A stretch of DNA of 64,000 nucleotides from an uncultured Bdellovibrionales bacterium (GTDB lineage: Bacteria > Patescibacteriota > Minisyncoccia > Moranbacterales > GWC2-37-73), in the NCBI GenBank assembly GCA_964484505.1, contig CAZAFB010000003.1, positions 37,044 to 101,043 of the forward strand. The letters are read 5' to 3'. The notes under the pieces were generated by a model. That model had not been told where the DNA came from, did no database searches, and saw only the letters and a program-made list of their open reading frames with translations. This document shows positions 31,138 to 64,000 of this stretch, piece by piece. Every line of letters starts with the position of its first letter. Positions within the stretch are counted from its first letter, which is position 1. A program made the position numbers and the translations under genes.

Positions 31138-33126
31138 ATGAAAATCAAAATTGTGTGCTTGGCTTTTGCTTTGGTGTTCTTCGCTACAGCAATAAATGCC
31201 GAGGAAATTTCCGATAGCACAAGCGAAAATGTCAAAGAAGGATATGTCGTGCCGGTAATCGTATCTTCTGCCAGTGCAGAAATGCAGGAAGGGAATATTG
31301 CTAAGATTAATTTTAGTGTCAAAAATAGTGGAAAGGAAGCGCAGCGTTTCAGATACAGCACAAATGTCTTGAATGTTAATGGCGATGGTGTTGAACTTTA
31401 TGATCAAAAAAAGTTTGACGAGTTAGTGTTTCTGTTTCCCGGAGAAAACAAAGATTTACAGTTTGAATATGCTTTTTCAGAAAAAGGAAAGCTTGGTAAT
31501 TCTTTTACAGTGAAGATCATTTTGGAAGACTCAAATGGAAAGATTTTGGATATGTATAATGCTGGTATCATTAATTGGGAACCAAAAGAAAAACAAGTCG
31601 TAACAAATAATTCCAATATTGAAAAGAAAGAATCAAGCCTAATGCAAAAGGCTTCGATTGCATTTATTTTTGTTACAGTATTTCTGATAATGTTAGTTTT
31701 ATTTTTGAGGAAAAAAATGGCAAACAGAGCCGCATTGTTCTTGTTTTTTGTCCTTTGCAGTATGCTTCATTTCCAAAAAGCTCAAGCAGTGACTGTAAGT
31801 AGCGGTAGCGGCAGCGTTACCTTTACCTCGTATACCAGGGCTGATGCTTGTCCCAACCCTGGTCCGTTTGTGTGTGTGGCCTCTGGAGTTACTTATAACA
31901 ACGGTCTTGATTATAACTACAGAACAACATCCACGGCCACCATTCCTGGTTATAAGAGGGGTCGTGCGGCAATATACATAGGAACCGAAGCTTCAATTAT
32001 TGACAGTGCAAATCCGATTAATGGAACATACTCGCCACCTACAAGCACTACGCAATTTATAAACAGTGAACCGCCAATTTCTTATTCGGTCACATTTAAT
32101 GGGCAAACCAAGACGGTATTTACAAATGCTACGGCAAGATTTGAATATTGTGGTTCAGGAGCATCCGGATGCGATAATCCCGTTTATTATAATTATGCTT
32201 CTTTTACTTTACCCGCATCTCCAGGTATATATAATGCAAGTTACACCGCTTCATATAATGGCAGGACCAGCAGCGGCACTTTTCCGATAGCCGTAGTTTC
32301 CGAACTTTCAGGAGCTTGTGATAATGGTCCGAATGGCCAAAATAGTGGGGTTCCAAAGTCTACAGCACCAACGTCCTTTTGCAGTTCTGGTTTTTATAAT
32401 AATGATCTTATTTCCAATGCAACCACTTGGAATTGGAGATGTTATGGAGGACTTTCAGTCAATGGCGCAACTGTTGATGCAAACAACCTAGGCGTTTTTG
32501 CAAACTGTAGCGCGAACAAGATCGTGTATAGTTGTACGGCAGGTGCCAGCACGGCAAATGCTGATCCTTGCACGGGTGATAATACAGGCCTTTCGGCCAA
32601 TACTCCGAACACTCTGGTTTCTGCTTGTGGCGTTCCTAAATGTGAATATACCTGTCGTTCAGGATTCACCCTTTATTCCGGAGCTTGCAGAAATATTTGT
32701 GGAAGTGCTAATGGAGGTACTTATTCAACGGCTCCCGCAACAAATCTTTGCGGAACAGGGAGCTCTATCATCGGTACGGTTACTGATTCTGGAACCAATT
32801 GGACTTGGACGTGTGCTGGAACAAGCGATGGCAGGATGAGAAATTGCAGTGCTATAAAAGGAGCTTGTGTTGTGAGCTATAGTGATTATCAGTGCACATA
32901 TAACGATTCAGTCGATTGTCTTGATGAGGCAAATTGTGAACAAACAAATCACAAAACCGTCAATGCATGTTCTGCCCAAAATAGTTGCACTTCTGGTTAT
33001 GATTTACTTACTCCTGCAGATTGCAACAATAACGGAGTCGCTTGTGCGAACAATGACCAAACATGTCCGGATTGTGCGCCAAGCGATCCCACGGGAGAAA
33101 ATGTTTATCGTGAAGTAGCACCATAG
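31138..33126 (+). CDS. Large Cys-rich surface protein, paralog A. Signal peptide, N-domain, TM helix, RKK, internal signal-peptide-like helix, then a Cys/Thr/Ser/Gly-rich C-domain.
   Basis: N-terminal Sec signal (AINA/EE). Mid-protein ASIAFIFVTVFLIMLVLFLRKK-MANRAALFLFFVLCSMLHFQKAQA. The C-domain carries repeated [ST]APxxxLC...TW[TN]WxC boxes and the conserved tail TCPDC...NVYREVAP. Confidence 0.6.
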   Translation: MKIKIVCLAFALVFFATAINAEEISDSTSENVKEGYVVPVIVSSASAEMQEGNIAKINFSVKNSGKEAQRFRYSTNVLNVNGDGVELYDQKKFDELVFLFPGENKDLQFEYAFSEKGKLGNSFTVKIILEDSNGKILDMYNAGIINWEPKEKQVVTNNSNIEKKESSLMQKASIAFIFVTVFLIMLVLFLRKKMANRAALFLFFVLCSMLHFQKAQAVTVSSGSGSVTFTSYTRADACPNPGPFVCVASGVTYNNGLDYNYRTTSTATIPGYKRGRAAIYIGTEASIIDSANPINGTYSPPTSTTQFINSEPPISYSVTFNGQTKTVFTNATARFEYCGSGASGCDNPVYYNYASFTLPASPGIYNASYTASYNGRTSSGTFPIAVVSELSGACDNGPNGQNSGVPKSTAPTSFCSSGFYNNDLISNATTWNWRCYGGLSVNGATVDANNLGVFANCSANKIVYSCTAGASTANADPCTGDNTGLSANTPNTLVSACGVPKCEYTCRSGFTLYSGACRNICGSANGGTYSTAPATNLCGTGSSIIGTVTDSGTNWTWTCAGTSDGRMRNCSAIKGACVVSYSDYQCTYNDSVDCLDEANCEQTNHKTVNACSAQNSCTSGYDLLTPADCNNNGVACANNDQTCPDCAPSDPTGENVYREVAP

Positions 33127-33308: not shown

Positions 33309-36086
33309 ATGAAAACAAAAATACTTTGGCTGGTTTTTGCTGCCGCTCTCTTTGTGGCACAAAACAATGTTTTGGCTGAAGAGAAACTTTCCGATGAACA
33401 AATCAGGGCCGACATGGAAGCTAAAATGAAGAATCAGTACGGAGACTTGGTGAAGCTGAACACTGACCAGCAGGGTCAAGCAACAAAAATAGCCTCGACA
33501 GATGTTTACAACGTCCAAATTTTGGAAAATAACGGGACGGAAGCTACTGTCGGTTTTGATGTCTACAATAAAGAAGGCATCCAATCCCAGATAAAATATG
33601 CTGCCAAATTATTTAAGGAAACGGAAAACAGCTCGCAGCTTGTTGATTTCAAAGTATATGACGAGTTGTTATCAGTTGGCAACGAGGAACAGATTCATAG
33701 AGAAATAAGGTATGAACTGCCTAATTATTTGAATGGTAAATTTAAATTGTATGTGGAATTGCAAAACAGTGAGGGCATGCTCCTTTCTCTTTCGCCGGCA
33801 GGTGATGTAGATTTGAAGCCTGCTAATGGGTACATTTCCATCGATGAAAGCAGTTGCTATCTTTTCATCGGAGAGGATAGCCAAAATAAATATAATCTTG
33901 TTCAGGGCGTAGACGTGGCTTCTTCCGAGAAACTCACATTGAATTGTGATATTGAGAACAAAGCCGGAGCTGAAAAAACCCTGACCCCAAATATCTCGTC
34001 ATATTACAGAAATATTTTTGGTGAAAAGAGATCTTCGGCTGATTTGGATAACATTATTCTTGAATCAGGCAAAAAAGTGGAAAAGCAGTTCGTCATTCCC
34101 AAGCCTGAAGCGCCCCAAGCTTATGATACTGTCCTTTCTTTGGTTGGCGAGGATGGGAAAATAGCCTCAAATAAAATTATTGTTCATTATGTGGTCCAGG
34201 GTCCCAGTGGAACTATTCAAAACATTATATTTGACAAAGACAAGTATCTCAAAGGAGAAGTTTCCAAGATAAATTTTGCATATTTTGACAGTGCTGACAG
34301 TTTCACTGGTTCTCGCGCTGGCACGGCGAATATAAAAGAAGCGGTTGCTTTTATAAAAATTGCTGACGGCTTTGGCAAGTCATGTGGAAAAATGGTTGAA
34401 AAAAACATTGAAAAAAGCAACGGACTCATCAGTGCAGATTATTCAATGGAAAAAGATTGCAATTACCCGCAAGCTGAAATAACGGTCAAGGATCCGGAAG
34501 GACGTGTTTTGGCGCAGACAATCTTTAAAATGAAAACAGATAACTTGGAGCATGAAAGTGAAGTGTCGAAACTGTCTGAAACGGTAGCCTCCAAGAAATT
34601 ATTGCTTATTGTTTTAATCATCTTGCTTGCAATATCTTTGGCGATAGTTTTCACAGTAAGATCAAGAAAAGCGAAGATAGCATCCCTCGCGTTGTTTCTA
34701 GCTGGAAATATGTTTTTATTGGGAGCAGGAAAAGCAAGTGCTGACAGCTACACGCTGAGCATGCATTATTATGTCTATGGCTATTCTTGTCCAGTTTCCG
34801 TTGAATGTCATAAGGCCCCAATAAATCTGTCTTCTCGCTTGGCTGCTGACCATATTAATTTCGGAAGTTGTACTTATACTGCGATACATGAATCCAATGA
34901 GACAATGAATGGAAGTTTTGTTGTGCCACCGACTGTTGCTCCCGGAGCTACTTTTCCTGTAACGGTTGGCTTATACAATCCTAAGTGCGTAAATACTGTT
35001 CCTGTGCAAGTCACTGTTGCCGGTTATGTGCCAAACGGATTCGGTAATTTTGACAAAGAAGTAACATTCTTCGGTACCAGCTGGGCTCAGCGAGCAGAGG
35101 ATGGACTTGTCATTGCAGGAGGAACTTCCGTCAGTAAAACGATCAACGCCATTGCACCGAATACCCCGGGTGATTACATTGTGAGATTTTATGTATTCGG
35201 TTCTCCTGATCCTGATAGTGTATATAATGCGTTTAAGAACTGTGGTGCTCATCCTCAATTGAGTGGGGCAATCAGTGCAACTGCTACAATAATAGATGTG
35301 AAATATAAAGTTGTTGTTCCTACTCCAGTAAATGGTGTTTGTGGATCATCTAACGGAGGATCATTTACTACGGCTCCAACAAGCGGACTTTGCAATACAA
35401 CCGCTACGACTCCAACAGTGGCAGATAGCGGTACTTCTTGGACATGGAAATGTACGGGAAGCGGAGGGGGAACAGATGCATCTTGTAGTGCAAGTAAATT
35501 AGCAGCTTCTTGCACCGGCTCCGTTCCGACAAACGCGGGTGCATATGATGCCGAAGAAAGCAGTGGCTTGGCTGTTAGTACCTCTTGGGCATATTCAGCT
35601 ACTGATACAGCGACAAAATGTCAATACAGGTGCACTGCCGGAAGTTGGATGGGTTCTTATTGCGGCTACAATTGCGGTGGGTCAATTCCGACCAATGGTC
35701 AATCATATGGCGCAACTGAGACCTCGAGCATATTTTCTCCAACTTCATGGTCTTATTCCGGATCGAACACTGCAACTAAATGCCAATTTTACTGTCAGGC
35801 AGGCACAAGCTGGGATGGTTCCGGTTGTGTAAATGGAAGTTGTACCTACAGCGGGCATACTTGTAGCTACAGCAATTCCGTAGATTGTTCAGACTCTGCT
35901 AATTGCGGACAAACCAACAATCAAACAGCATTTTGCTTGGCCGCAAACAGTTGCACGGGCAGCACGGATACGTTATCTGCAGCAGCTTGCACTGCCGCGG
36001 GAGTTTCATGTTCTGACAAAACTGAAACTTGTCCGGCATGCAGCGGAGGATCTGGTGATAATACGTATAGGGAAGTGCTGCCATAA
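33309..36086 (+). CDS. Large Cys-rich surface protein, paralog B, with the same domain grammar and a longer N-domain
   Basis: Signal peptide, about 440 aa N-domain, TM LLLIVLIILLAISLAIVFTV, RSRKAK, IASLALFLAGNMFLLGAGKASA, then a Cys-rich domain ending TCPACSGGSGDNTYREVLP. Shares the CGSxNGG...SGTxWTWxC box with paralog A. Confidence 0.6.
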   Translation: MKTKILWLVFAAALFVAQNNVLAEEKLSDEQIRADMEAKMKNQYGDLVKLNTDQQGQATKIASTDVYNVQILENNGTEATVGFDVYNKEGIQSQIKYAAKLFKETENSSQLVDFKVYDELLSVGNEEQIHREIRYELPNYLNGKFKLYVELQNSEGMLLSLSPAGDVDLKPANGYISIDESSCYLFIGEDSQNKYNLVQGVDVASSEKLTLNCDIENKAGAEKTLTPNISSYYRNIFGEKRSSADLDNIILESGKKVEKQFVIPKPEAPQAYDTVLSLVGEDGKIASNKIIVHYVVQGPSGTIQNIIFDKDKYLKGEVSKINFAYFDSADSFTGSRAGTANIKEAVAFIKIADGFGKSCGKMVEKNIEKSNGLISADYSMEKDCNYPQAEITVKDPEGRVLAQTIFKMKTDNLEHESEVSKLSETVASKKLLLIVLIILLAISLAIVFTVRSRKAKIASLALFLAGNMFLLGAGKASADSYTLSMHYYVYGYSCPVSVECHKAPINLSSRLAADHINFGSCTYTAIHESNETMNGSFVVPPTVAPGATFPVTVGLYNPKCVNTVPVQVTVAGYVPNGFGNFDKEVTFFGTSWAQRAEDGLVIAGGTSVSKTINAIAPNTPGDYIVRFYVFGSPDPDSVYNAFKNCGAHPQLSGAISATATIIDVKYKVVVPTPVNGVCGSSNGGSFTTAPTSGLCNTTATTPTVADSGTSWTWKCTGSGGGTDASCSASKLAASCTGSVPTNAGAYDAEESSGLAVSTSWAYSATDTATKCQYRCTAGSWMGSYCGYNCGGSIPTNGQSYGATETSSIFSPTSWSYSGSNTATKCQFYCQAGTSWDGSGCVNGSCTYSGHTCSYSNSVDCSDSANCGQTNNQTAFCLAANSCTGSTDTLSAAACTAAGVSCSDKTETCPACSGGSGDNTYREVLP

Positions 36087-57146: not shown

Positions 57147-57270
57147 TTTTGGAGTTATCCACAGAGAAAGGGTTGAGTGATTTTTGTTATAGTGATAAAA
57201 TATCACTATAATCCATAAAATATACCCCAGTTAAATGTTGTACTTCGTGCAATTTAACGGGGCAAGCAAC

Positions 57271-58095
57271 ATGGAAAACACAAAAATCGTTTTATTTAGA
57301 GGAAAGGGAATTAGAAAGACTATTTACAAAAATGAATGGTATTTCTCAGTCGTTGATATTATTGAATCTCTGACTGATTCAAAAAACGCTACAGATTATT
57401 TAAAAAAATTGCGCAAGAGAGATGTGGAAGTCGGATCGTACATAGGGACAAATTGTCCCCAGGTAGAAATGGAAACTGAAACTGGCAAAAAAAGAAAAAC
57501 ACTTGCGGGCAATGTTGAGCAGCTGTTTCGTATCATACAATCGATTCCATCGCCGAAAGCGGAACCAATCAAACGTTGGTTAGCAAAAACAGGATATGAA
57601 AGAATAGAGGAAATCGAAAATCCGGAATTGGCGACGAAGCGGACAAGGGTTCTGTATAAGCTCAAAGGATATTCGGATGATTGGATTGAAAAGCGGGTGC
57701 GGGGAATTGCAATTCGTGAAGAATTGACTGACGAATGGAAAAACCGCGGAGCTGACGAGCAAAGAGATTATGAAATTTTGACTGCGGAAATTTCCAAAGC
57801 TACTTTTGGGATTACGCCCAGTGAATACAAAAAACACAAGGGGCTGGAGCGTGAAAATTTGCGTGACCACATGGACGATTTCGAATTGATCTTCACAATG
57901 CTTGGTGAAAGATCAACCACGGAGATTCATCGCACGGAAAATTCGAAAGGTGTTGCAAAATTGAAGGCTGATGCCAAGGCAGGTGGAGATATTGCAGGTG
58001 GGGCGAGGAAAAAGTTGGAAAAAAGATTGGGCAGATCAATTGTTACTAAGGATAATTATCTCAAAAAACCTCAAAATAAGAAATTGTTGAAATAA
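57271..58095 (+). CDS. Bro-N domain protein (DinD/phage antirepressor-like N-terminus)
   Basis: KIVLFRGKGIRKTIYKNEWYFSVVDIIESLTDSKNATDYLKKLRKR resembles the Bro-N / DNA-damage-inducible protein D N-terminal domain. Confidence 0.5.
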   Translation: MENTKIVLFRGKGIRKTIYKNEWYFSVVDIIESLTDSKNATDYLKKLRKRDVEVGSYIGTNCPQVEMETETGKKRKTLAGNVEQLFRIIQSIPSPKAEPIKRWLAKTGYERIEEIENPELATKRTRVLYKLKGYSDDWIEKRVRGIAIREELTDEWKNRGADEQRDYEILTAEISKATFGITPSEYKKHKGLERENLRDHMDDFELIFTMLGERSTTEIHRTENSKGVAKLKADAKAGGDIAGGARKKLEKRLGRSIVTKDNYLKKPQNKKLLK

Positions 58096-58281: not shown

Positions 58282-59166
58282 ATGGAAAAAACAAACGATG
58301 TGGAAGAAGATTTCTATGCAGAAGCCTTTTCTCGCAACATTGGGCTGTTTTCTCCCAAAGAACAAGGTATTTTGCGGGAATCTACAGTTGCCATAGCTGG
58401 CTTGGGTGGCGTTGGTGGCAATTATTGTCTTAGTTTGGCGCGCACGGGAGTGGGCGGTTTTTCGCTTGCGGATTTTGACACTTTTGAACTTGCTAATACA
58501 AATAGGCAGGCCGGGGCTGACACTCAAAGCATGGGAAGAGAAAAATGTATCGTGATGGCGGAAAAGGTAAGGTTGATAAATCCACATGCCAGAATAAGGC
58601 AGTTCAACAAGGGAATAAGTAGTGAAAATGTGGACGAATTTCTTGAAGGCGCCAAAGTGGTTTTGGATGGGCTTGATTTTTTTGCCATAAGAGAAAGAGT
58701 GATGCTTTTCAAAAAGGCCAGGGAAAAAGGAATTTTTGCCATAACTTCTCCGCCAATTGGTTTTGGAGCCGCGCTTTTGGTTTTTGATCCCAAGGGCATG
58801 AATTTTGAGGAATATTTTGATATTTGTGATGGAATGGATGAAAAAGAAATGCTTTTTCGTTTTGGTTTGGGTTTGAGTCCTTCTCTGATTCAGCGAAAAT
58901 ATTTCAAGCCGGAATCGATTGATTTTTCTGGCAAAAAAACACCTTCACTTGGGATAGGTACCCAAGCCTGCAATAATTTAGTCTGTTGTGAAACAGCCAA
59001 GGTCATTTTGGGAAAAAGAGTACGTAGTGTGCCTTTTTCAACACACTTCGATCCATATGTACAAAAATACAAAAAAATAACACTCTGGGGCGGCAATCGT
59101 AATCCCAAACAATTGCTCAAGAGAATGATTTTTAGAAAAATTCTCAAGAAAAAAGGAATGATATGA
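58282..59166 (+). CDS. ThiF/MoeB/HesA-family E1-like adenylyltransferase
   Basis: VAIAGLGGVGGNYCLSLARTGVGGFSLADFDTFELANTNRQ (Rossmann GxGxxG and the conserved NRQ). Confidence 0.7.
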   Translation: MEKTNDVEEDFYAEAFSRNIGLFSPKEQGILRESTVAIAGLGGVGGNYCLSLARTGVGGFSLADFDTFELANTNRQAGADTQSMGREKCIVMAEKVRLINPHARIRQFNKGISSENVDEFLEGAKVVLDGLDFFAIRERVMLFKKAREKGIFAITSPPIGFGAALLVFDPKGMNFEEYFDICDGMDEKEMLFRFGLGLSPSLIQRKYFKPESIDFSGKKTPSLGIGTQACNNLVCCETAKVILGKRVRSVPFSTHFDPYVQKYKKITLWGGNRNPKQLLKRMIFRKILKKKGMI

Positions 59167-59795
59167 AGAAGAAATTCAAGAAAAAAATAGCCGATTTGTT
59201 CATCGCGTTTAATCAAATATTGGTTTATGTGATATTTTCCCGTCTTTTGCGCTATTATTTTCGTGCCAATAAAAAGGTCGCTGCTTCCATAGGGGAATTG
59301 AAAAAAGGATCCTTGATTGTCGCAAACCATCAATCAATTCTTGATCCCTTCATAATATTGTCGCACCTCCCTTTGAAATCTTTTTTGCGGACTATTCCGG
59401 TTAGATTTCCGACTAAGCATTCATATTACAAATACCTTCGTTTGCTGGCATTTGTGGGAGCATTTGATATTGGCGATCAAAACAGGGAACGCATGCTCGG
59501 CCTTTTTCGCACGCGACAATACCTTGTGGATGGCAAAAGCATCATGCTTTTTCCCGAAGGAAAGATCTGCACAAATGCGGAAGCTGGAATAGATGAATTT
59601 CAAAAAGGCATAACTTTTTTAACCGATGTGGCAAAAAACGTGCTTTTTGTGCGAATGGAAGGATTTCATCGTAGTGATTGGTTGAAGATCATGAAAAAGC
59701 GTAGAAGCATGGCTTTTAGTGAAATATGCCAGATGAAAGGAGAAAATAAAAATCCCGATGTATTAAAGGAATATATGGAGCAACTCTCTGTTTAA
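59163..59795 (+). CDS. Lysophospholipid acyltransferase (PlsC/LPLAT family)
   Basis: H(x)4D motif ANHQSILDP and the FPEGK motif. Confidence 0.6.
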   Translation: MKKKFKKKIADLFIAFNQILVYVIFSRLLRYYFRANKKVAASIGELKKGSLIVANHQSILDPFIILSHLPLKSFLRTIPVRFPTKHSYYKYLRLLAFVGAFDIGDQNRERMLGLFRTRQYLVDGKSIMLFPEGKICTNAEAGIDEFQKGITFLTDVAKNVLFVRMEGFHRSDWLKIMKKRRSMAFSEICQMKGENKNPDVLKEYMEQLSV

Positions 59796-59810
59796 AAGAA
59801 AATAGAGCAT

Positions 59811-60494
59811 ATGGTAGTGGCTGAATGTTTTTATGACAAAATCGATTTTCACGAAGCGCATCTTTCTCCAAGAGAAAAAGTCATTTTTAGTGGTGCAAAT
59901 AGGGACAAAAAGAGAACCTGGCTTTCCGGCAGGATCGCTGCAAAAAGAGCATTTCAAAAGCATGTGGCTTTGGAATTTGGGATAAGTCCCAAGTTGGAGG
60001 AAGTGGAAGTTTCTTGCGATATACATGGCAAGCCGAAAATTTCTTTTATTGATAACCATGACAAATTCGGCTCTTATTGCGAAACTGATTTATCGATAGC
60101 ACATGCGGACGGCCTGGCCATGGCTGCTGTTTCCAGAATTAAAGATTTCGGATTGGTCGGGATAGATATTGAAAAAAAACGGTTTTTTAAAACATCAATA
60201 GCCGATGCTTTTTTATCGGCGAATGAGCTTGATTTTATAGCTGATTCCGCAAATGATGGCGATATCCTCAAGACAGTTTTCTGGTGCATAAAGGAAGCCT
60301 ACTTGAAGGCCAAGGGAATAGGCTTGAGGCAACATCCCGCAACCATACAAGTTTCGTCGCCTCTTAGCGGCAAGGGAAAGGTGTTTGATGAAAAAGACTC
60401 TTCCGCGGAAGCTTTTTTTCATGTCTTCCGCTGCTATGAAGATTTTTTTGTGGCAATTGTAAACATAAAAAATAGGGAACAAATCAATTTATAA
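59811..60494 (+). CDS. 4'-phosphopantetheinyl transferase (Sfp-type)
   Basis: GIDIE and WCIKEAYLKAKG motifs. Confidence 0.7.
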   Translation: MVVAECFYDKIDFHEAHLSPREKVIFSGANRDKKRTWLSGRIAAKRAFQKHVALEFGISPKLEEVEVSCDIHGKPKISFIDNHDKFGSYCETDLSIAHADGLAMAAVSRIKDFGLVGIDIEKKRFFKTSIADAFLSANELDFIADSANDGDILKTVFWCIKEAYLKAKGIGLRQHPATIQVSSPLSGKGKVFDEKDSSAEAFFHVFRCYEDFFVAIVNIKNREQINL

Positions 60495-60505
60495 AATACG
60501 AAAGT

Positions 60506-60736
60506 ATGACAGACAATAGAGTATATGAAGTCATCATTGAAACGCTCGGCATAGACAGGGCTGCTTTTGATGAATTTTCTAAAATAGAGGATATCTGCAA
60601 GGATTCCATCCAGATATTTAGTTTAATTATGGCGTTTGAAAAGAAATTCGGACAAAAAGTTGATTATGATGATTTGGTGAATATTGAAACTGTGGGTGAT
60701 ATAATGAGATTGGTCGAAAGACTTGGAAATAAGTAG
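60506..60736 (+). CDS. Acyl carrier protein-like
   Basis: 76 aa four-helix protein with a DSI(Q) phosphopantetheine attachment-like site (KDSIQIFSLIMAFEKKFG). Confidence 0.65.
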   Translation: MTDNRVYEVIIETLGIDRAAFDEFSKIEDICKDSIQIFSLIMAFEKKFGQKVDYDDLVNIETVGDIMRLVERLGNK

Positions 60737-60903
60737 GGAATTTTTACAATATGTTATAAAACTAGAAGTTACGCATCTGCATAAATTTCAAGCAAATATA
60801 TATTTTTTGCTTGCCTTTCACGGCCGGCAGTGCGCAAAAATAATATTTGCTGAAATTTTGAAAATTCAAACGTGTAAGTTCTAAAAATATTTTTTACAAA
60901 AAT

Positions 60904-61674
60904 ATGGCAATTAAAAACCAAGCTATTTTTATAGGATTGCTTCTTCCGGTTTTGCTCTTGCTTTGCATGGCAATTTATGCCGGTTTTTTCAAAGATTTTG
61001 CTTTTAAGATTAAATACGGCTCCTATTCTTTTTTTGGCACCAAGGAGAAGATGAATGCGATTAATGTTGAGAGTATTGCAAAATCAAAAAAAGATAGAAC
61101 CAACGTGACTGTAGTTATTCATGGTGCTGGCGCTGAATATTATAAAGATGTTTATGGTACGGTAATTTGGCTAAAAGAGCAGGGGATGAATCCGATTTCA
61201 TTTGATTATGATTTCAGGGAAAGCCCTGATGTTTCAGCCGGGAGGCTCAAAAAATTTATTGAAGAAACATTGCTTGAAACAGGAAATGAAAAAGTCGATA
61301 TTCTCGGCATATGTTTGGGAGGCATGTTGGCAAAATATTATGCTCAGGAATATGGTGGTGCCTCCAGCATCAGGAAACTTGTTACGATAATTTCTCCTGC
61401 ATTGGTCATACCTGAAAAAGAACCGGCTTACATGTATGATAAATATTTTTCTTTCGACCCGGATCCTTGGAATGAAATATTGGTCAAATTGGAAAATATT
61501 AATCCGGTAGTTGATCATCTCTATTTGTATTGCAGAAAAGATTTGCTAGTCCCGAGTAAATATCAAAGAGCGGAAATCGGCAATTATTTCGGTTTTGATT
61601 GCGGACATGCCTTTATCAATACCAACCCGCAATTACTTCAAAAGGCCGGAGAATTTTTAGAGACACGAAAGTAA
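60904..61674 (+). CDS. Alpha/beta-hydrolase fold protein with Cys in the nucleophile elbow (G-I-C-L-G-G)
   Basis: N-terminal TM; HGAGAEYY followed by VDILGICLGG. This is a GxSxG-like elbow carrying Cys. Confidence 0.5.
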   Translation: MAIKNQAIFIGLLLPVLLLLCMAIYAGFFKDFAFKIKYGSYSFFGTKEKMNAINVESIAKSKKDRTNVTVVIHGAGAEYYKDVYGTVIWLKEQGMNPISFDYDFRESPDVSAGRLKKFIEETLLETGNEKVDILGICLGGMLAKYYAQEYGGASSIRKLVTIISPALVIPEKEPAYMYDKYFSFDPDPWNEILVKLENINPVVDHLYLYCRKDLLVPSKYQRAEIGNYFGFDCGHAFINTNPQLLQKAGEFLETRK

Positions 61675-61698
61675 AAAGGAAATTCAACGAATGATGAT

Positions 61699-62817
61699 AT
61701 GGAAAAATGGAAATCAATAAGGGATTTTTTAAACCACAAGCTGTATGTGTATTTTCTCAGGAGAATTTTTTTTCAGATAGATCCCGAGCGTATACATAAT
61801 ATTATGATATCTTTTGGGAATTTCTTGGGGAAATATTCCTCAACAAAGAGGGTAACTTCTTTATTCTTTGGTTATGAGAACGATTCTCTGAAACAGCATA
61901 TTTTAGGACTTGAATTTGCAAATCCCATTGGTCTGGCTGCGGGATTCGACAAGGATGTGCAACTGACCCAGATATTGTCCGAAGTCGGATTTGGTTTTAT
62001 GGAGGGAGGTTCGGTAACGGGAGAAAGTTGTGAGGGCAATCCCAAGCCCAGATTATGGAGACTGAAAGAATCCAAGAGCCTTTTGGTTTATTATGGCCTC
62101 AAGAACGAAGGTTGTGAGCGAATTGCTGGCAGGCTTAAAGGAAAAAAAATAATTTTTCCTTTGGGTATAAGTGTTGCAAAAACAAACAATGAAAAAACAG
62201 TTTCTCTGGAAGGAGGAATCGAAGATTATCTAAAAGCTTTTCGTGAGATGTCCGGGATTGCTGATTATATAACCATAAACATAAGTTGCCCGAATGCTTT
62301 TGGGGGCTGTCCGTTTACTAGCAGGGAATATTTGGAGGCATTGCTTTCGAAAATAAGTTCTGCTCGCAGCAGCAAGCCAATATTCCTAAAATTATCGCCA
62401 AATCTCACCAAAGAAGAACTGGATACGATTATTGAAGTTTCCGGAAGATATGGCATTGATGGTTTTGTGTGTAGCAATTTAACCAAAGACAGAAGAAATG
62501 GAAAAATAAAAGACCTTGGTTTCCCGGAAAAGGGTGGGATGAGCGGCAAGGTGGTGGAAGATCTTGCCGAAGAACAGATAAAGTATATCTTTTCCTTAAC
62601 CAAGGGGAGATTCGTCATTATCGGTTGTGGTGGTGTTTTTTGTGCCGAGGATGCCTATCGGAAGATTCGTTTGGGTGCTTCCTTGATTCAAATGATTACA
62701 GGAATGATTTATGAGGGTCCACAAGTTATCGGTCAGATAAACCGAGGTCTTGATCAATTGCTGAAAAAAGACGGTTTCGTTTCAATAAGTGAAGCGATCG
62801 GTGTTGATAATGAATAA
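61699..62817 (+). CDS. pyrD: Dihydroorotate dehydrogenase-like (class 2 PyrD family) flavoprotein
   Basis: NPIGLAAGFDKD ... GFGFMEGGSVT ... GNPKPRLWRL ... ITINISCPN are class 2 DHODH hallmarks. Confidence 0.7.
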   Translation: MEKWKSIRDFLNHKLYVYFLRRIFFQIDPERIHNIMISFGNFLGKYSSTKRVTSLFFGYENDSLKQHILGLEFANPIGLAAGFDKDVQLTQILSEVGFGFMEGGSVTGESCEGNPKPRLWRLKESKSLLVYYGLKNEGCERIAGRLKGKKIIFPLGISVAKTNNEKTVSLEGGIEDYLKAFREMSGIADYITINISCPNAFGGCPFTSREYLEALLSKISSARSSKPIFLKLSPNLTKEELDTIIEVSGRYGIDGFVCSNLTKDRRNGKIKDLGFPEKGGMSGKVVEDLAEEQIKYIFSLTKGRFVIIGCGGVFCAEDAYRKIRLGASLIQMITGMIYEGPQVIGQINRGLDQLLKKDGFVSISEAIGVDNE

Positions 62818-62820
62818 TTT

Positions 62821-63492
62821 ATGTCCAAGATAGACTTCTATTTGATGCGTTCTCAGAAAGGTCTTCAACAAGCTGCGGATCTGGTGCAGTTTGAATATGA
62901 AAAAGATGGATATGTAAAAGTTCTTGAAAAAGACGAGCGGGTGCCGATTTCAAAATATAACAAAGAATCAAGTTCCTTTACTTTTTTGGCGAAAAATGAA
63001 GAATTGGTTTTGGGTACGGTGAGTTTGGTTTGCGATGGAAAATTCGGAATTCCTTTGGATTCTATTTTTGCTCAGGAAATGCAGCTTTTGCGGGCGAAAG
63101 GAAAAAAGTGCGCTGAAATATCTCAGCTTGCCATCAGGCGCGATGCGGTCGATCTTCTTGGATTGAATCAACGAAAAATTCAAATGCTTTTACTTTTGCC
63201 TTTGTTTAAACTCGTTTTCTATTGTGCTAAAGCTTGTGAAATAGATACGCTTTGCATTACCATAAATCCCAAGCATGATAAATTTTATCTGGCTCTTGGC
63301 TTCGAGCCTCTCGGTGAAGAAAAAACATATGAAGCAGTTGGTGGTGCACCGGCGCTATTGAGAAAACTTGAACTTGATCGCGCCTCCGAAATGCAAGAAA
63401 ATATCGTGACGCGCGAGATTCTAAATGGACCTATAGAGTTCTCTTTCCTTGATAACAAAAATGATAAAGTTGTCTTTTCTCAAGGGTATTAA
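62821..63492 (+). CDS. GNAT-fold N-acyltransferase resembling N-acyl amino acid synthases (FeeM) and acyl-homoserine-lactone synthases
   Basis: The EISQLAIRRD and NPKHDKFYLALGFEPLG segments resemble E-x-SR-hxh and the C-terminal core of FeeM/LuxI-like enzymes. Judged from memory only. Confidence 0.4.
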   Translation: MSKIDFYLMRSQKGLQQAADLVQFEYEKDGYVKVLEKDERVPISKYNKESSSFTFLAKNEELVLGTVSLVCDGKFGIPLDSIFAQEMQLLRAKGKKCAEISQLAIRRDAVDLLGLNQRKIQMLLLLPLFKLVFYCAKACEIDTLCITINPKHDKFYLALGFEPLGEEKTYEAVGGAPALLRKLELDRASEMQENIVTREILNGPIEFSFLDNKNDKVVFSQGY

Positions 63493-63496
63493 TTTT

Positions 63497-64000
63497 TTAA
63501 CTTTTTGTTTTGAGCACTTCTGCAAGTTTTTTTCTTCCTGAATCAAGTGATGGTTTTTTGGCGTAGCCTATTCGGAAAAATGCTACAAAAACACCATTTT
63601 TTACGCCCTTGAATTTGCTTGAAAAATGATGATGTATTTTTTTTCTGATGTTTTCGTGCTTTTTAGATAGCCCGCCCTTGTGGAGTTGTCCATTGAGGAT
63701 AAAAGCGATGGGTCCGAAGAGTGGTTGCACGGAGATGCCTTGCTTGGAAAACTCCAGCCAAAGGGATTGCAAAAGTCTCCCACCCTCGGCATAAACATGA
63801 GGATGCCTCTCCAAAGGGGAAACTATCGCTACCAAGCCGGCGGACTTTCTGATTGTATTTCTGGTGTGTAAAACGGAACCTATCGCCAACATTTTCCAAA
63901 TCAAGGGAAATTTTGAAGCGGCGAATATGGCTGGCCTGAATAAATGCTTTTTTAATCCCAGTTCTAGACTGTCTATATGCAAGCCGTCAGCATGCTTTTT
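63497..64000 (-). CDS. Nitroreductase-family protein, C-terminal part. The N-terminus is outside the window.
   Basis: LLQSLWLEFSKQGISVQPL ... FFRIGYAKKP resembles the C-terminal half of FMN nitroreductases. The frame is open to the window edge. Confidence 0.4.
   Translation of the reverse strand, partial: KKHADGLHIDSLELGLKKHLFRPAIFAASKFPLIWKMLAIGSVLHTRNTIRKSAGLVAIVSPLERHPHVYAEGGRLLQSLWLEFSKQGISVQPLFGPIAFILNGQLHKGGLSKKHENIRKKIHHHFSSKFKGVKNGVFVAFFRIGYAKKPSLDSGRKKLAEVLKTKS

Follow-up and report, generated by a model that had tools for sequence, protein, structure and literature searches.

The eight genes at positions 58282-64000 of the window, by which we mean the whole 64,000-nucleotide stretch of DNA analysed, probably form an operon-like biosynthetic cluster for a fatty-acylated amino acid lipid of the oxazolone type (discovered only recently) or the dehydro-amino-acid type, in a form specific to the CPR (Patescibacteria). 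Since numerous further genomes show the same grouping of genes, chance is far from sufficient to explain it. By profile searches, we confirmed that all eight consecutive ORFs lie where an earlier note on this DNA had placed them, with the domains that it had named. The first seven genes (g1-g7) are on the plus strand and are tightly packed; g1 and g2 overlap by 4 nt, and the successive gaps from g2 to g7 are 15, 11, 167, 24 and 3 nt. The eighth gene (g8; 63497-64000, the window end) is on the minus strand, convergent with g1-g7. The window holds just the C-terminal 168 codons of g8; the complete gene encodes 353 aa in the source contig (JGI Ga0248168_1000248, 111.5 kb) and corresponds to window positions 63497-64558.

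The product of g1 (58282-59166, plus strand, 294 aa) was assigned as a ThiF-like ATP-dependent adenylating enzyme or cyclase of the TyzB/OxzB-N/TrzS-N type. [quoted passage not shown] The ThiF domains of ThiF-FDO fusion proteins showed 49-51% identity to g1. The GxGxxG motif, R75, K88 and D129/D132 are invariant across the g1 family, and the adenylation motif is retained in g1, including the Asp equivalent to TrzS D217. TcdA is the closest solved structure to g1; the identification of g1 as TcdA itself was rejected (73 bits against a cutoff of 304), as was its identification as a housekeeping ThiF or MoeB, with scores far under both equivalog cutoffs.

The product of g7 (62821-63492, plus strand, 223 aa) is a FeeM-type N-acyl amino acid synthase, analogous to OxzA, TyzA and NasY. 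It matched PF21926 (FeeM) at 109 bits and the FeeM structure PDB 2G0B with an E value of 1.9e-23 and 38% identity. The catalytic Glu (FeeM Glu95) is kept in g7 within 'CAEISQL', and in 84 of 90 family members. These assignments indicate that neither the GNAT nor the E1-like protein belongs to an unrelated housekeeping family, an outcome for which the earlier note had proposed a check. The scores of FeeM-like proteins against FeeM had a median of 92 bits for those linked to an acyl carrier protein (ACP) and of 0 for those without such linkage, and the crystallised FeeM is 60-68% identical to FeeM-like proteins of the ACP-linked CPR clade (L109 and L009, the latter from a Paceibacterota MAG). 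FeeM is described as binding FeeL, the ACP of its own cluster (Van Wagoner & Clardy 2006). Since acyl-CoA is the in vitro donor for OxzA, TyzA and TrzA, the characterised enzymes, use of an ACP by g7 is predicted only from FeeM/FeeL and from gene linkage.

The g8 product is an FDO of the nitroreductase superfamily (TyzC/OxzB-C/TrzS-C type). Full-length g8 (locus L001) gave 154 bits against positions 374-720, the FDO part, of the family model for Rv1355c/TrzS, with 152 bits for PRK14851 and 107 for the Acg family, and it retains all family positions of at least 85% conservation, including APSxDNxQPW. The trio of ThiF, FeeM and FDO is known to make tyrazolones, phenazolones, tryptazolones and N-acyl-dehydrotyrosines. 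Among 81 loci holding the g1-type ThiF family, 55 had an FDO within 6 kb of ThiF (23 of them as a fusion) and 51 had a FeeM-like gene within the same distance (3 as a fusion); all three genes occurred together in 39.

Three further genes encode a module with a dedicated acyltransferase and a dedicated carrier protein. The product of g2 (59163-59795, plus strand, 210 aa) is an LPLAT acyltransferase of the PlsC/OlsA type, which matched PF01553 at 34 bits with invariant HX4D (H56-D61) and FPEG (130-133) motifs, and its best NCBIfam matches are named acyl-[ACP]--phospholipid O-acyltransferase. Next to it, g3 (59811-60494, plus strand, 227 aa) encodes a two-domain Sfp-type 4'-phosphopantetheinyl transferase (PPTase), in which PF01648 matched two stretches, along with a hint of 4PPT_N. 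The FeeL-like ACP encoded by g4 (60506-60736, plus strand, 76 aa) matched PF00550, with Ser34 within a DSI motif, and scored under every AcpP equivalog cutoff, indicating that it is not a canonical AcpP. The serine of the DS[ILF] motif is invariant in all 24 cluster ACPs.

We then compared 12 CPR loci with 76 non-CPR loci. The g2 LPLAT was present in 11 of the 12 CPR clusters and in none of the 76 non-CPR loci, while the g3-type PPTase and g4-type ACP were each found in 12/12 CPR clusters and likewise in none of the 76 others; LPLAT-PPTase-ACP was the gene order in nearly all cases. Linkage of ThiF, ACP, PPTase and LPLAT was observed in 11-12 of the 12 CPR loci, even in those without an FDO, and the ThiFs linked to an ACP form a single clade. 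Gene order is shuffled between CPR lineages, yet the cluster genes remain together. In a reciprocal search from the LPLAT, all 17 close homologues adjoined other cluster genes (ThiF being nearby in 15), compared with 0 of 63 distant PlsC-like proteins. This LPLAT subfamily is rare, with 46 members among 1.84 billion representatives at E <= 1e-30. The LPLAT-PPTase-ACP module is a real, CPR-lineage-specific companion of the trio, and the cluster is recurrent in a CPR lineage and no single-genome oddity. The earlier note's reading of an N-acyl amino acid or lipid cluster was borne out, and the genes are co-conserved, as examined through the gene neighbourhoods that it had suggested. The FDO was undetected in about half of the ACP-linked clusters (L006, L008, L009/L103, L038 and L106), and the end product of these lineages therefore cannot be a conjugated oxazolone; the carboxylate activated by ThiF may have another fate in them.

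By homology, a pathway can be proposed for the window cluster. The g3 PPTase would convert the apo carrier g4 to the holo form, as expected from its family. Acyl-ACP synthetase, AMP-binding ligase and FAS genes were absent from the window and from Pfam-annotated sister loci, and acyl loading of the ACP would follow a route other than a cluster-encoded classical ligase or FAS; acyl groups from scavenged lipids may come via the LPLAT, the g5 hydrolase or, in sister clusters, the GDSL lipases. Using acyl-ACP as donor, g7 would acylate the alpha-amine of an amino acid, in the way proposed for FeeM/FeeL. The g8 oxidase would then catalyse C-alpha/C-beta desaturation, as judged from its homology to the OxzB, TyzB/TyzC and TrzS systems, for which the reactions have been reconstituted in vitro, and the predicted product is an acyl-arylidene-oxazolone, or an N-acyl-dehydro-amino acid if the ring opens. 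The weakest step is that of g2, which might add or move a second acyl group by acyl-ACP-dependent O-acylation; this putative role is assigned by analogy with OlsA/GlsA, the pairing of an N-acyltransferase with a PF01553 O-acyltransferase being an established two-step aminolipid scheme. Most sister clusters, in which lipases are also usual, encode an ABC exporter of the MacB type together with a membrane-fusion protein, and this exporter may handle the product there; no MacB-type exporter was found in the window. Methyltransferases were detected in several CPR clusters (L006, L038, L086, L109 and L175).

An unlikely alternative is that the holo-ACP bears the ThiF-activated N-acyl-aminoacyl group, instead of or besides a fatty acyl group, and that the LPLAT passes this group to a lipid or hydroxyl acceptor. 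In this chemistry, ThiF would adenylate or cyclise the N-acyl amino acid, and attack by the holo-ACP thiol would open the adenylate or azlactone and yield N-acyl-aminoacyl-S-ACP. In favour of it, no enzyme other than ThiF that activates carboxylates with ATP was found in any cluster, the linkage of ThiF to ACP, PPTase and LPLAT persists where the FDO is missing, and LPLATs take acyl-ACP donors, judging from the NCBIfam naming of the best g2 matches. Saturated oxazolones are chemically activated acyl donors. The literature shows that TrzS produces them as genuine intermediates that can be released. However, an E1-like enzyme feeding a carrier protein is without known precedent, the approximately 50% identity of the ThiF to the ThiF domains of ACP-less systems implies that the extra step must be an add-on, and the binding of FeeL by FeeM already accounts for the ACP.

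The hydrolases bear on a second alternative, which we consider quite improbable: that LPLAT, PPTase, ACP and lipases constitute a unit by which CPR cells lacking FAS scavenge or remodel lipids in general (re-acylation of lysolipids with host-derived acyl chains being one example), and are merely co-located with the trio. The g5 product (60904-61674, plus strand, 256 aa) is a membrane-anchored LipA-like alpha/beta hydrolase with a hydrophobic helix at the N-terminus and a Cys at the nucleophile position (G-I-C-L-G-G). Among solved structures, it is closest to minimal lipases of the Bacillus LipA type, whose nucleophile Ser aligns to this Cys, and 5/5 homologues keep the Cys of CLGG, the His of CGH and an Asp. 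Hydrolases recur beside the module, the g5 type in five of the 12 CPR loci (confined to one cluster sub-lineage), GDSL lipase pairs in four, while L006 and L038 have alpha/beta hydrolases of other kinds; the occurrence in 5/12 loci of a lipid-transport-type protein (DedA/VTT) and the lack of FAS genes in the window are also consistent with scavenging. Against this, the LPLAT subfamily was found essentially only beside ThiF, FeeM, ACP or PPTase, its rarity is unlike that of a general housekeeping enzyme, and the genes stay together despite their shuffled order.

The PyrD-like flavoprotein, g6 (61699-62817, plus strand), had been included among the pathway enzymes in the earlier note. It is a dihydroorotate dehydrogenase (DHODH) of class-2 architecture, with 222 bits on DHO_dh, and passed the PyrD equivalog cutoffs of TIGR01036 (296 bits; cutoff 200) and NF003652 (339 bits; cutoff 267), in agreement with that annotation. 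It aligned full-length to human DHODH, whose Ser215 corresponds to a Cys as the catalytic base of g6. Many CPR lineages and DPANN have DHODHs with 56-64% identity to it, and the Cys was invariant in 19/19. We regard it as very unlikely that g6 is an integral enzyme, such as a second C-alpha/C-beta desaturase with a dihydro-heterocycle or an N-acylated amino acid as its substrate. In favour of such a role, the oxidation of dihydroorotate already amounts to alpha,beta-desaturation of an N-carbamoyl amino acid in cyclic form, the g6 base is Cys and not the class-2 Ser, and a convergent DHODH-FeeM-FDO block with gaps of 3-25 nt is kept in L001, L005, L085 and L175, in the last of these although its ThiF is differently related. 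These four are the only loci in which the g6-type DHODH adjoins FeeM, directly upstream in each. Against such a role, most clusters lack a DHODH, and the Cys-type enzyme, at about 60% identity, is widespread, including at one archaeal locus with no cluster. Moreover, pyrF and a pyrE-like gene are located 7 kb downstream, and pyrF also flanks another cluster. Being present in just one cluster sub-lineage, g6 is probably not a core pathway gene but a general CPR/DPANN PyrD, likely the cell's own, in a conserved syntenic position, as a passenger or possibly an accessory.

The resemblance of the E1-like and nitroreductase-fold pair to SagC-like and SagB/McbC-like proteins, in line with the earlier note's mention of TOMM-type machinery, and the action of E1-like enzymes in several RiPP pathways (known from the literature) might suggest TOMM/RiPP machinery installing azol(in)es on a ribosomal peptide, but this is effectively refuted by the absence of YcaO from the window region and the 10 kb downstream (where the transporter also sought was likewise absent), by the PRK08223, OxzB-type clade of g1, by the FDO/Acg branch of g8, which fuses to such ThiFs, and by a conserved partner that is a FeeM-type N-acyltransferase and not a precursor peptide. 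The pair is heterocycle-forming, as that resemblance implied, but of the small-molecule oxazolone synthetase type (OxzB/TyzB+TyzC/TrzS).

Among known systems, aminolipid synthesis by OlsB/OlsA, GlsB/GlsA and SalA likewise combines a GNAT-type N-acyltransferase with a PF01553 (PlsC-like) O-acyltransferase, each of them dependent on acyl-ACP, but uses FAS II 3-hydroxyacyl-ACP and the housekeeping AcpP, without ThiF or FDO, and g7 is of the FeeM type (PF21926), not the OlsB type. The fee cluster of eDNA clone CSL12, with the N-acyl tyrosine synthase FeeM and the ACP FeeL (Brady, Chao & Clardy 2002; Van Wagoner & Clardy 2006), shares a dedicated ACP adjoining a FeeM-type synthase with the catalytic Glu95, FeeM being closer to the L109/L009 proteins than to g7 (38%). 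It differs in that it reportedly includes an enzyme that activates fatty acids as well as the flavin decarboxylase FeeG, with enamides and enol esters as the products; neither enzyme was seen here.

The acyl-oxazolone systems OxzA/OxzB (Pseudoalteromonas rubra), TyzA/TyzB/TyzC (M. tuberculosis Rv2336/Rv2338c/Rv2337c) and TrzA/TrzS (Rv1356c/Rv1355c) share a FeeM/AHL-synthase-fold N-acyltransferase, a ThiF-like cyclase and a nitroreductase-superfamily oxidase, clustered or fused, in line with the matches of g1 to ThiF-FDO fusion models and of g8 to the FDO part of the TrzS model; in Tyz, as in g1, g7 and g8, the proteins are separate. Unlike the CPR clusters, about half of which lack the FDO, these systems are known from Proteobacteria and Actinobacteria and lack a carrier protein, a PPTase, an LPLAT, a lipase and an exporter; acyl-CoA was the donor in assays of their acyltransferases. 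The NasY-ThiF-nitroreductase(-methyltransferase) clusters of Planctomycetota, Gammaproteobacteria and Betaproteobacteria have the same trio, and methyltransferases as in several CPR clusters, but no dedicated ACP, PPTase or LPLAT. Their products, the stieleriacines, thalassotalic acids and kyonggic acids, are open-chain N-acyl-2,3-dehydrotyrosines, a plausible end product for the CPR cluster too. Compared with the characterised oxazolone systems, which lack a carrier protein and acyltransferase of this kind of their own, the novelty of the CPR cluster lies in the presence of LPLAT, PPTase and ACP together with the trio.

Eight adjacent genes (g1–g8) occupy the end of the window, where ORF listing and profile searches agree with the description in the earlier note. 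On the plus strand, g1 (58282–59166) encodes a ThiF-like protein, g2 (59163–59795) an LPLAT acyltransferase with HX4D and FPEG motifs, g3 (59811–60494) a two-domain Sfp-type PPTase, g4 (60506–60736) a 76-aa carrier protein with Ser34 in a DSI motif, g5 (60904–61674) an alpha/beta hydrolase, g6 (61699–62817) a DHO_dh protein and g7 (62821–63492) a member of the FeeM family. The last gene, g8 (63497 onwards, minus strand), encodes a nitroreductase-fold protein of 353 aa and extends 558 nt beyond the window end on the source contig (JGI Ga0248168_1000248, 111.5 kb).

[quoted passage not shown] The g1 protein matched PF00899 and passed the PRK08223 cutoff (NCBIfam), and its adenylation motif was intact, with GxGxxG, R75, K88 and D129/D132 invariant in the family (the counterpart Asp in TrzS is D217). 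It shared 49–51% identity with the ThiF domains of ThiF–FDO fusions. The g7 protein matched PF21926 at 109 bits (cutoff 27) and the FeeM structure PDB 2G0B (E = 1.9e-23), and the Glu in its 'CAEISQL' segment aligned with the catalytic Glu95 of FeeM, a residue kept in 84 of 90 family members. A score of 154 bits was obtained for g8 against the FDO part of the Rv1355c/TrzS model, with the FDO conserved residue set kept. Alignments were also found between g1 and PRK14851 (679 aa; ThiF and nitroreductase-like parts), between both g1 and g7 and PRK14852 (989 aa; FeeM-like, ThiF and nitroreductase-like parts), and between g8 and both PRK14851 and the Rv1355c family model, in each case over the C-terminal part. 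Proteins of the PRK14851/PRK14852 type are Rosetta-stone fusions of g7, g1 and g8. The link of g1 and g8 to OxzB, TyzB and TyzC runs through the NCBIfam Rv1355c-family model, the fusion-protein models and published papers. The core trio belongs to an already described pathway family, that of the oxazolones and N-acyl-dehydro-amino acids.

The earlier note had likened the E1-like and nitroreductase-fold pair to azole-forming (TOMM) machinery while seeing no YcaO; the absence of YcaO was borne out and the likeness was not, as neither the cluster nor the 10 kb downstream encodes YcaO, and that 10 kb instead holds a GH1 glycosidase gene, a 16S rRNA gene with an insertion, homing-endonuclease-like ORFs, pyrF and a pyrE-like gene. 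A transporter gene, which the earlier note also suggested looking for, was absent from the same 10 kb. An assignment of g1 to a housekeeping E1 family, named in the earlier note as evidence against its lipid reading, fared no better: the scores for TcdA (73, cutoff 304), ThiF (77, cutoff 275) and MoeB (63, cutoff 377) all lay far under the cutoffs. The nearest solved structure to g1 is that of TcdA, itself a dehydratase forming an oxazolone.

Conservation of the gene neighbourhood, suggested earlier as a check on the cluster, was analysed by alignment of ThiF homologues, which gave 80 loci from GTDB genomes (81 loci counted), and by running iterated HMMs of the eight window proteins against six-frame ORFs of the loci. 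The cluster genes were co-conserved across many loci. An FDO gene was located within 6 kb of ThiF in 55 of the 81 loci, being fused to ThiF in 23, and a FeeM-like gene in 51 (fused in three); both were near ThiF in 39/81. The hosts of the 81 ThiF loci were chiefly Proteobacteria, Desulfobacterota and Planctomycetota. The LPLAT, PPTase and ACP were confined to a small set of Patescibacteria loci, and an ACP, PPTase or LPLAT of the cluster types was found in 0/76 other loci.

We assembled 12 ACP-linked CPR loci, including seven extra neighbourhoods from exact-protein lookups; the loci were assigned by records or protein names to Saccharibacteria, Paceibacterota, Moranbacteria, 'Patescibacteria group', Yanofskybacteria and Minisyncoccota. 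ThiF, PPTase and ACP were present in all 12, and LPLAT and FeeM in 11 each, the missing FeeM case being cut by the locus end. FDO was detected in six, with two more loci cut. A MacB-type ABC exporter was found in nine of the 12 loci, eight of them with an HlyD/YknX-type fusion protein, followed by a g5-type hydrolase (5/12), DedA/VTT (5/12), GDSL lipase pairs (4/12), an SAM methyltransferase (3/12) and DHODH (3/12). The 12 CPR ThiFs formed an exclusive clade in a neighbour-joining tree that carries no bootstrap and is indicative only, and with metagenome loci added, 25 ACP-linked ThiFs and four others fell in one clade of an equally indicative tree, again with no bootstrap.

In L175, a Moraniibacteriota locus on a 767-kb contig, the gene order was the same as in the window's relatives, and ThiF was located on the opposite strand at the far end, its nearest relatives (65%) being Saccharibacteria-type ThiFs. 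The LPLAT, hydrolase, FeeM and FDO of this locus have an ancestry in common with the window's group, and its ThiF belongs to another sub-clade; from these affinities, the ThiF looks to have been replaced or relocated. In a second relative, L085, an EryCIII-like (GT1) glycosyltransferase gene (L085:12253–13470) was located between PPTase and ACP, a hint that the product of this lineage is glycosylated.

FDO is missing from about half of the ACP-linked clusters, the Saccharibacteria and Paceibacterota versions among them: it was not detected within the fetched flanks of L006, L008, L009/L103, L038 and L106, in which ThiF, LPLAT, PPTase, ACP and FeeM were kept. In these clusters, ThiF would yield at most a saturated, reactive oxazolone. 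TrzS releases a saturated oxazolone intermediate, and ThiF may here provide either a saturated oxazolone or an activated donor of acyl groups.

The carrier protein g4 scored under every AcpP equivalog cutoff, and the phosphopantetheine serine was invariant in 24 cluster ACPs. The ACP gene lies directly upstream of FeeM in L008, L009, L038, L100–L104 and L109. Neither the window nor the annotated sister loci showed an AMP-binding ligase, acyl-ACP synthetase or FAS gene, and this raises the biochemical question of how the ACP is acylated without FAS or ligase.

For g2, the catalytic blocks H56-X4-D61 and F130-P-E-G133 were invariant in sets of 11 and of 17 sequences. The protein did not belong to the PlsC or Aas equivalogs, scoring 30.6 bits against 103 for TIGR00530 and 26–36 against 886–1349 for the Aas models. 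A reciprocal test was then started from the LPLAT, in which JGI metagenome contigs were scanned with the cluster-LPLAT HMM. At least one further cluster gene adjoined the LPLAT in all 17 loci scoring at least 149 bits: ThiF in 15 of them and, where the contig was long enough, PPTase, ACP, FeeM, FDO or exporter genes as well; by comparison, cluster genes adjoined 0/63 PlsC-like loci scoring 83 bits or less. This difference marks the g2-type LPLAT as a dedicated, separate small subfamily and not the PlsC of the cell. It was also rare, with 17 proteins at E ≤ 1e-15 in a word-indexed database of 5.8 billion and 46 of 1.84 billion representatives at E ≤ 1e-30. Since the pairing of a GNAT N-acyltransferase with a PF01553 O-acyltransferase is established in ornithine, glycine and glutamine lipid synthesis, g2 may, by analogy with these aminolipids, carry out acyl-ACP-dependent O-acylation.

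The hydrolase g5 resembles the minimal lipases of the Bacillus LipA type, with a hydrophobic helix at its N-terminus and Cys in the nucleophile elbow (GxCLGG). This Cys, an Asp and a His were conserved in 5/5 homologues, and GDSL lipases or Ser-type hydrolases replace g5 in other lineages.

The DHODH g6 exceeded both PyrD equivalog cutoffs (TIGR01036, 296 versus 200; NF003652, 339 versus 267) and aligned over its full length with human DHODH (residues 27–371), including the N-terminal extension, in a class 2 (quinone) architecture. Its NISCPN motif places Cys at the catalytic Ser position (human Ser215, E. coli Ser175), and this Cys was invariant in 19/19 CPR/DPANN homologues (alignment A3); the GLKN motif of g6 looks class-1A-like. 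Many CPR lineages and DPANN have homologues of 56–64% identity, and one of these lies at an archaeal locus without the cluster. DHODH is located within the cluster only in L001 (the window's own cluster), L005, L085 and L175, each time directly upstream of FeeM, and pyrF and the pyrE-like gene are 7 kb from the window's cluster, pyrF also flanking that of L109. The most economical reading takes g6 for a housekeeping PyrD whose syntenic position is conserved; a functional link to the cluster is less likely. To our knowledge, CPR and DPANN are generally thought to lack quinones, yet a DHODH of class 2 architecture is kept. In the window's sub-lineage, DHODH lies between the cluster hydrolase/exporter genes and FeeM, next to the flavin oxidase, and a very improbable reading is that the cluster's lipophilic conjugated arylidene-oxazolone or dehydro-tyrosine lipid serves DHODH as a surrogate electron acceptor in the membrane and is re-oxidised by the O2-dependent FDO. 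If true, this would be a two-enzyme mini electron-transfer loop sustaining pyrimidine synthesis in a quinone-less cell; a second unusual element alongside it could be the loading of the dedicated ACP, either from host lipids that the cell scavenges or by a ThiF-activated intermediate.

A Bro-N domain protein, of a type known from phage anti-repressors, is encoded directly upstream of g1 (57235–58095, plus strand). In L085, the GH1 gene takes the position held by this Bro-N gene in the window, where GH1 lies downstream of g8. The flanks of the cluster have undergone local rearrangement. About 2.7–5.2 kb past the window end, the 16S rRNA gene (L001:13875–15626) is approximately 220 nt longer than the model, with a GIY-YIG-like ORF inside, and is followed by a LAGLIDADG-type ORF (L001:15942–16382). 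Such rRNA insertions are typical of CPR. The rest of the window encodes housekeeping functions (ATP synthase, ParAB, RelA, TopA, FtsAZ, ribosomal proteins, aaRSs and a GT). Downstream of ftsA/ftsZ, two adjacent large ORFs on the plus strand (31138–33126, 662 aa; 33309–36086, 925 aa) had no match in their Pfam record. The 64-kb window was also searched throughout for the types of exporter, GDSL lipase, DedA protein and methyltransferase present in sister clusters, and none was found. Promoter and terminator counts in the cluster were not above those of shuffles, and Rfam gave no match on 57–64 kb at E ≤ 0.1. GC skew was positive in all 2-kb windows of positions 1–64000 except one, and the plus strand holds nearly all genes, which fits a single, strongly strand-biased replichore.

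Taken together, the lipid or N-acyl amino acid biosynthetic reading of the earlier note was supported and sharpened, in that the core trio belongs with the oxazolone/N-acyl-dehydro-amino-acid family. Within the data reached, the elaboration with carrier protein, PPTase, LPLAT, lipase and exporter occurs only in Patescibacteria, and it is not described in the oxazolone or N-acyl-tyrosine literature examined. What is proposed here on the product, the amino acid used, the way the ACP is loaded and the acceptor of the LPLAT is inferred. CPR/Patescibacteria are generally regarded as unable to make fatty acids and lipids and as dependent on hosts. A lipid-like pathway of 7–12 genes, conserved in such small genomes and equipped with a dedicated carrier protein, PPTase and acyltransferase as well as lipases and, usually, an exporter, is therefore likely to matter for envelope function or dealings with the host. 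The oxazolone/N-acyl-dehydro-amino-acid pathways, described in 2021–2025, thereby gain a new superphylum and an architecture that depends on a carrier protein. The cluster proteins are small, soluble or singly anchored, so that the predictions are directly testable by heterologous expression.

Among known systems, N-acyl tyrazolones, phenazolones and tryptazolones are the products of OxzA/OxzB in Pseudoalteromonas rubra and of TyzA/B/C and TrzA/TrzS (Rv1356c/Rv1355c) in M. tuberculosis, and the N-acyl-dehydrotyrosines of Planctomycetota and others are made via the same trio. Like these systems, the window's cluster combines a ThiF-family ATP-dependent cyclase with intact adenylation motif (g1), a clustered FDO-type oxidase (g8) and an adjacent amino acid N-acyltransferase of the FeeM/AHL-synthase fold (g7). 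Whereas those systems use an acyl-CoA donor and have no dedicated carrier protein, genes for a dedicated ACP and PPTase are linked here. The crystallised FeeM (PDB 2G0B) is encoded on eDNA, in a cluster that also includes a dedicated ACP, FeeL, to which FeeM binds. FeeM shared 68% identity with the FeeM-like protein of L109 (L109:11383–11982), 60% with those of the soil Paceibacterota MAG L009 (L009:12297–12956) and of L100–L104, and 38% with g7. The cluster of L109, the locus closest to FeeM, is flanked by BipA, Nramp, an ABC-F protein, a DAO-type oxidase and pyrF, with no FeeG-like or ligase gene beside it. FeeM-like proteins of non-ACP-linked loci scored far lower than those of ACP-linked loci (median 0 versus 92 bits; non-ACP-linked maximum 69), and, together with the 60–68% identities, this places FeeM itself, on sequence evidence, within the carrier-protein-linked clade. 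The classic N-acyl amino acid synthase system from eDNA, FeeM/FeeL, may thus come from a CPR-like soil bacterium. The acyl group of g7 is probably taken from g4, for which this clade membership is the best available support, and, as in the fee cluster, the dedicated ACP lies in the same cluster as the synthase, g4 being 2 kb upstream of g7.
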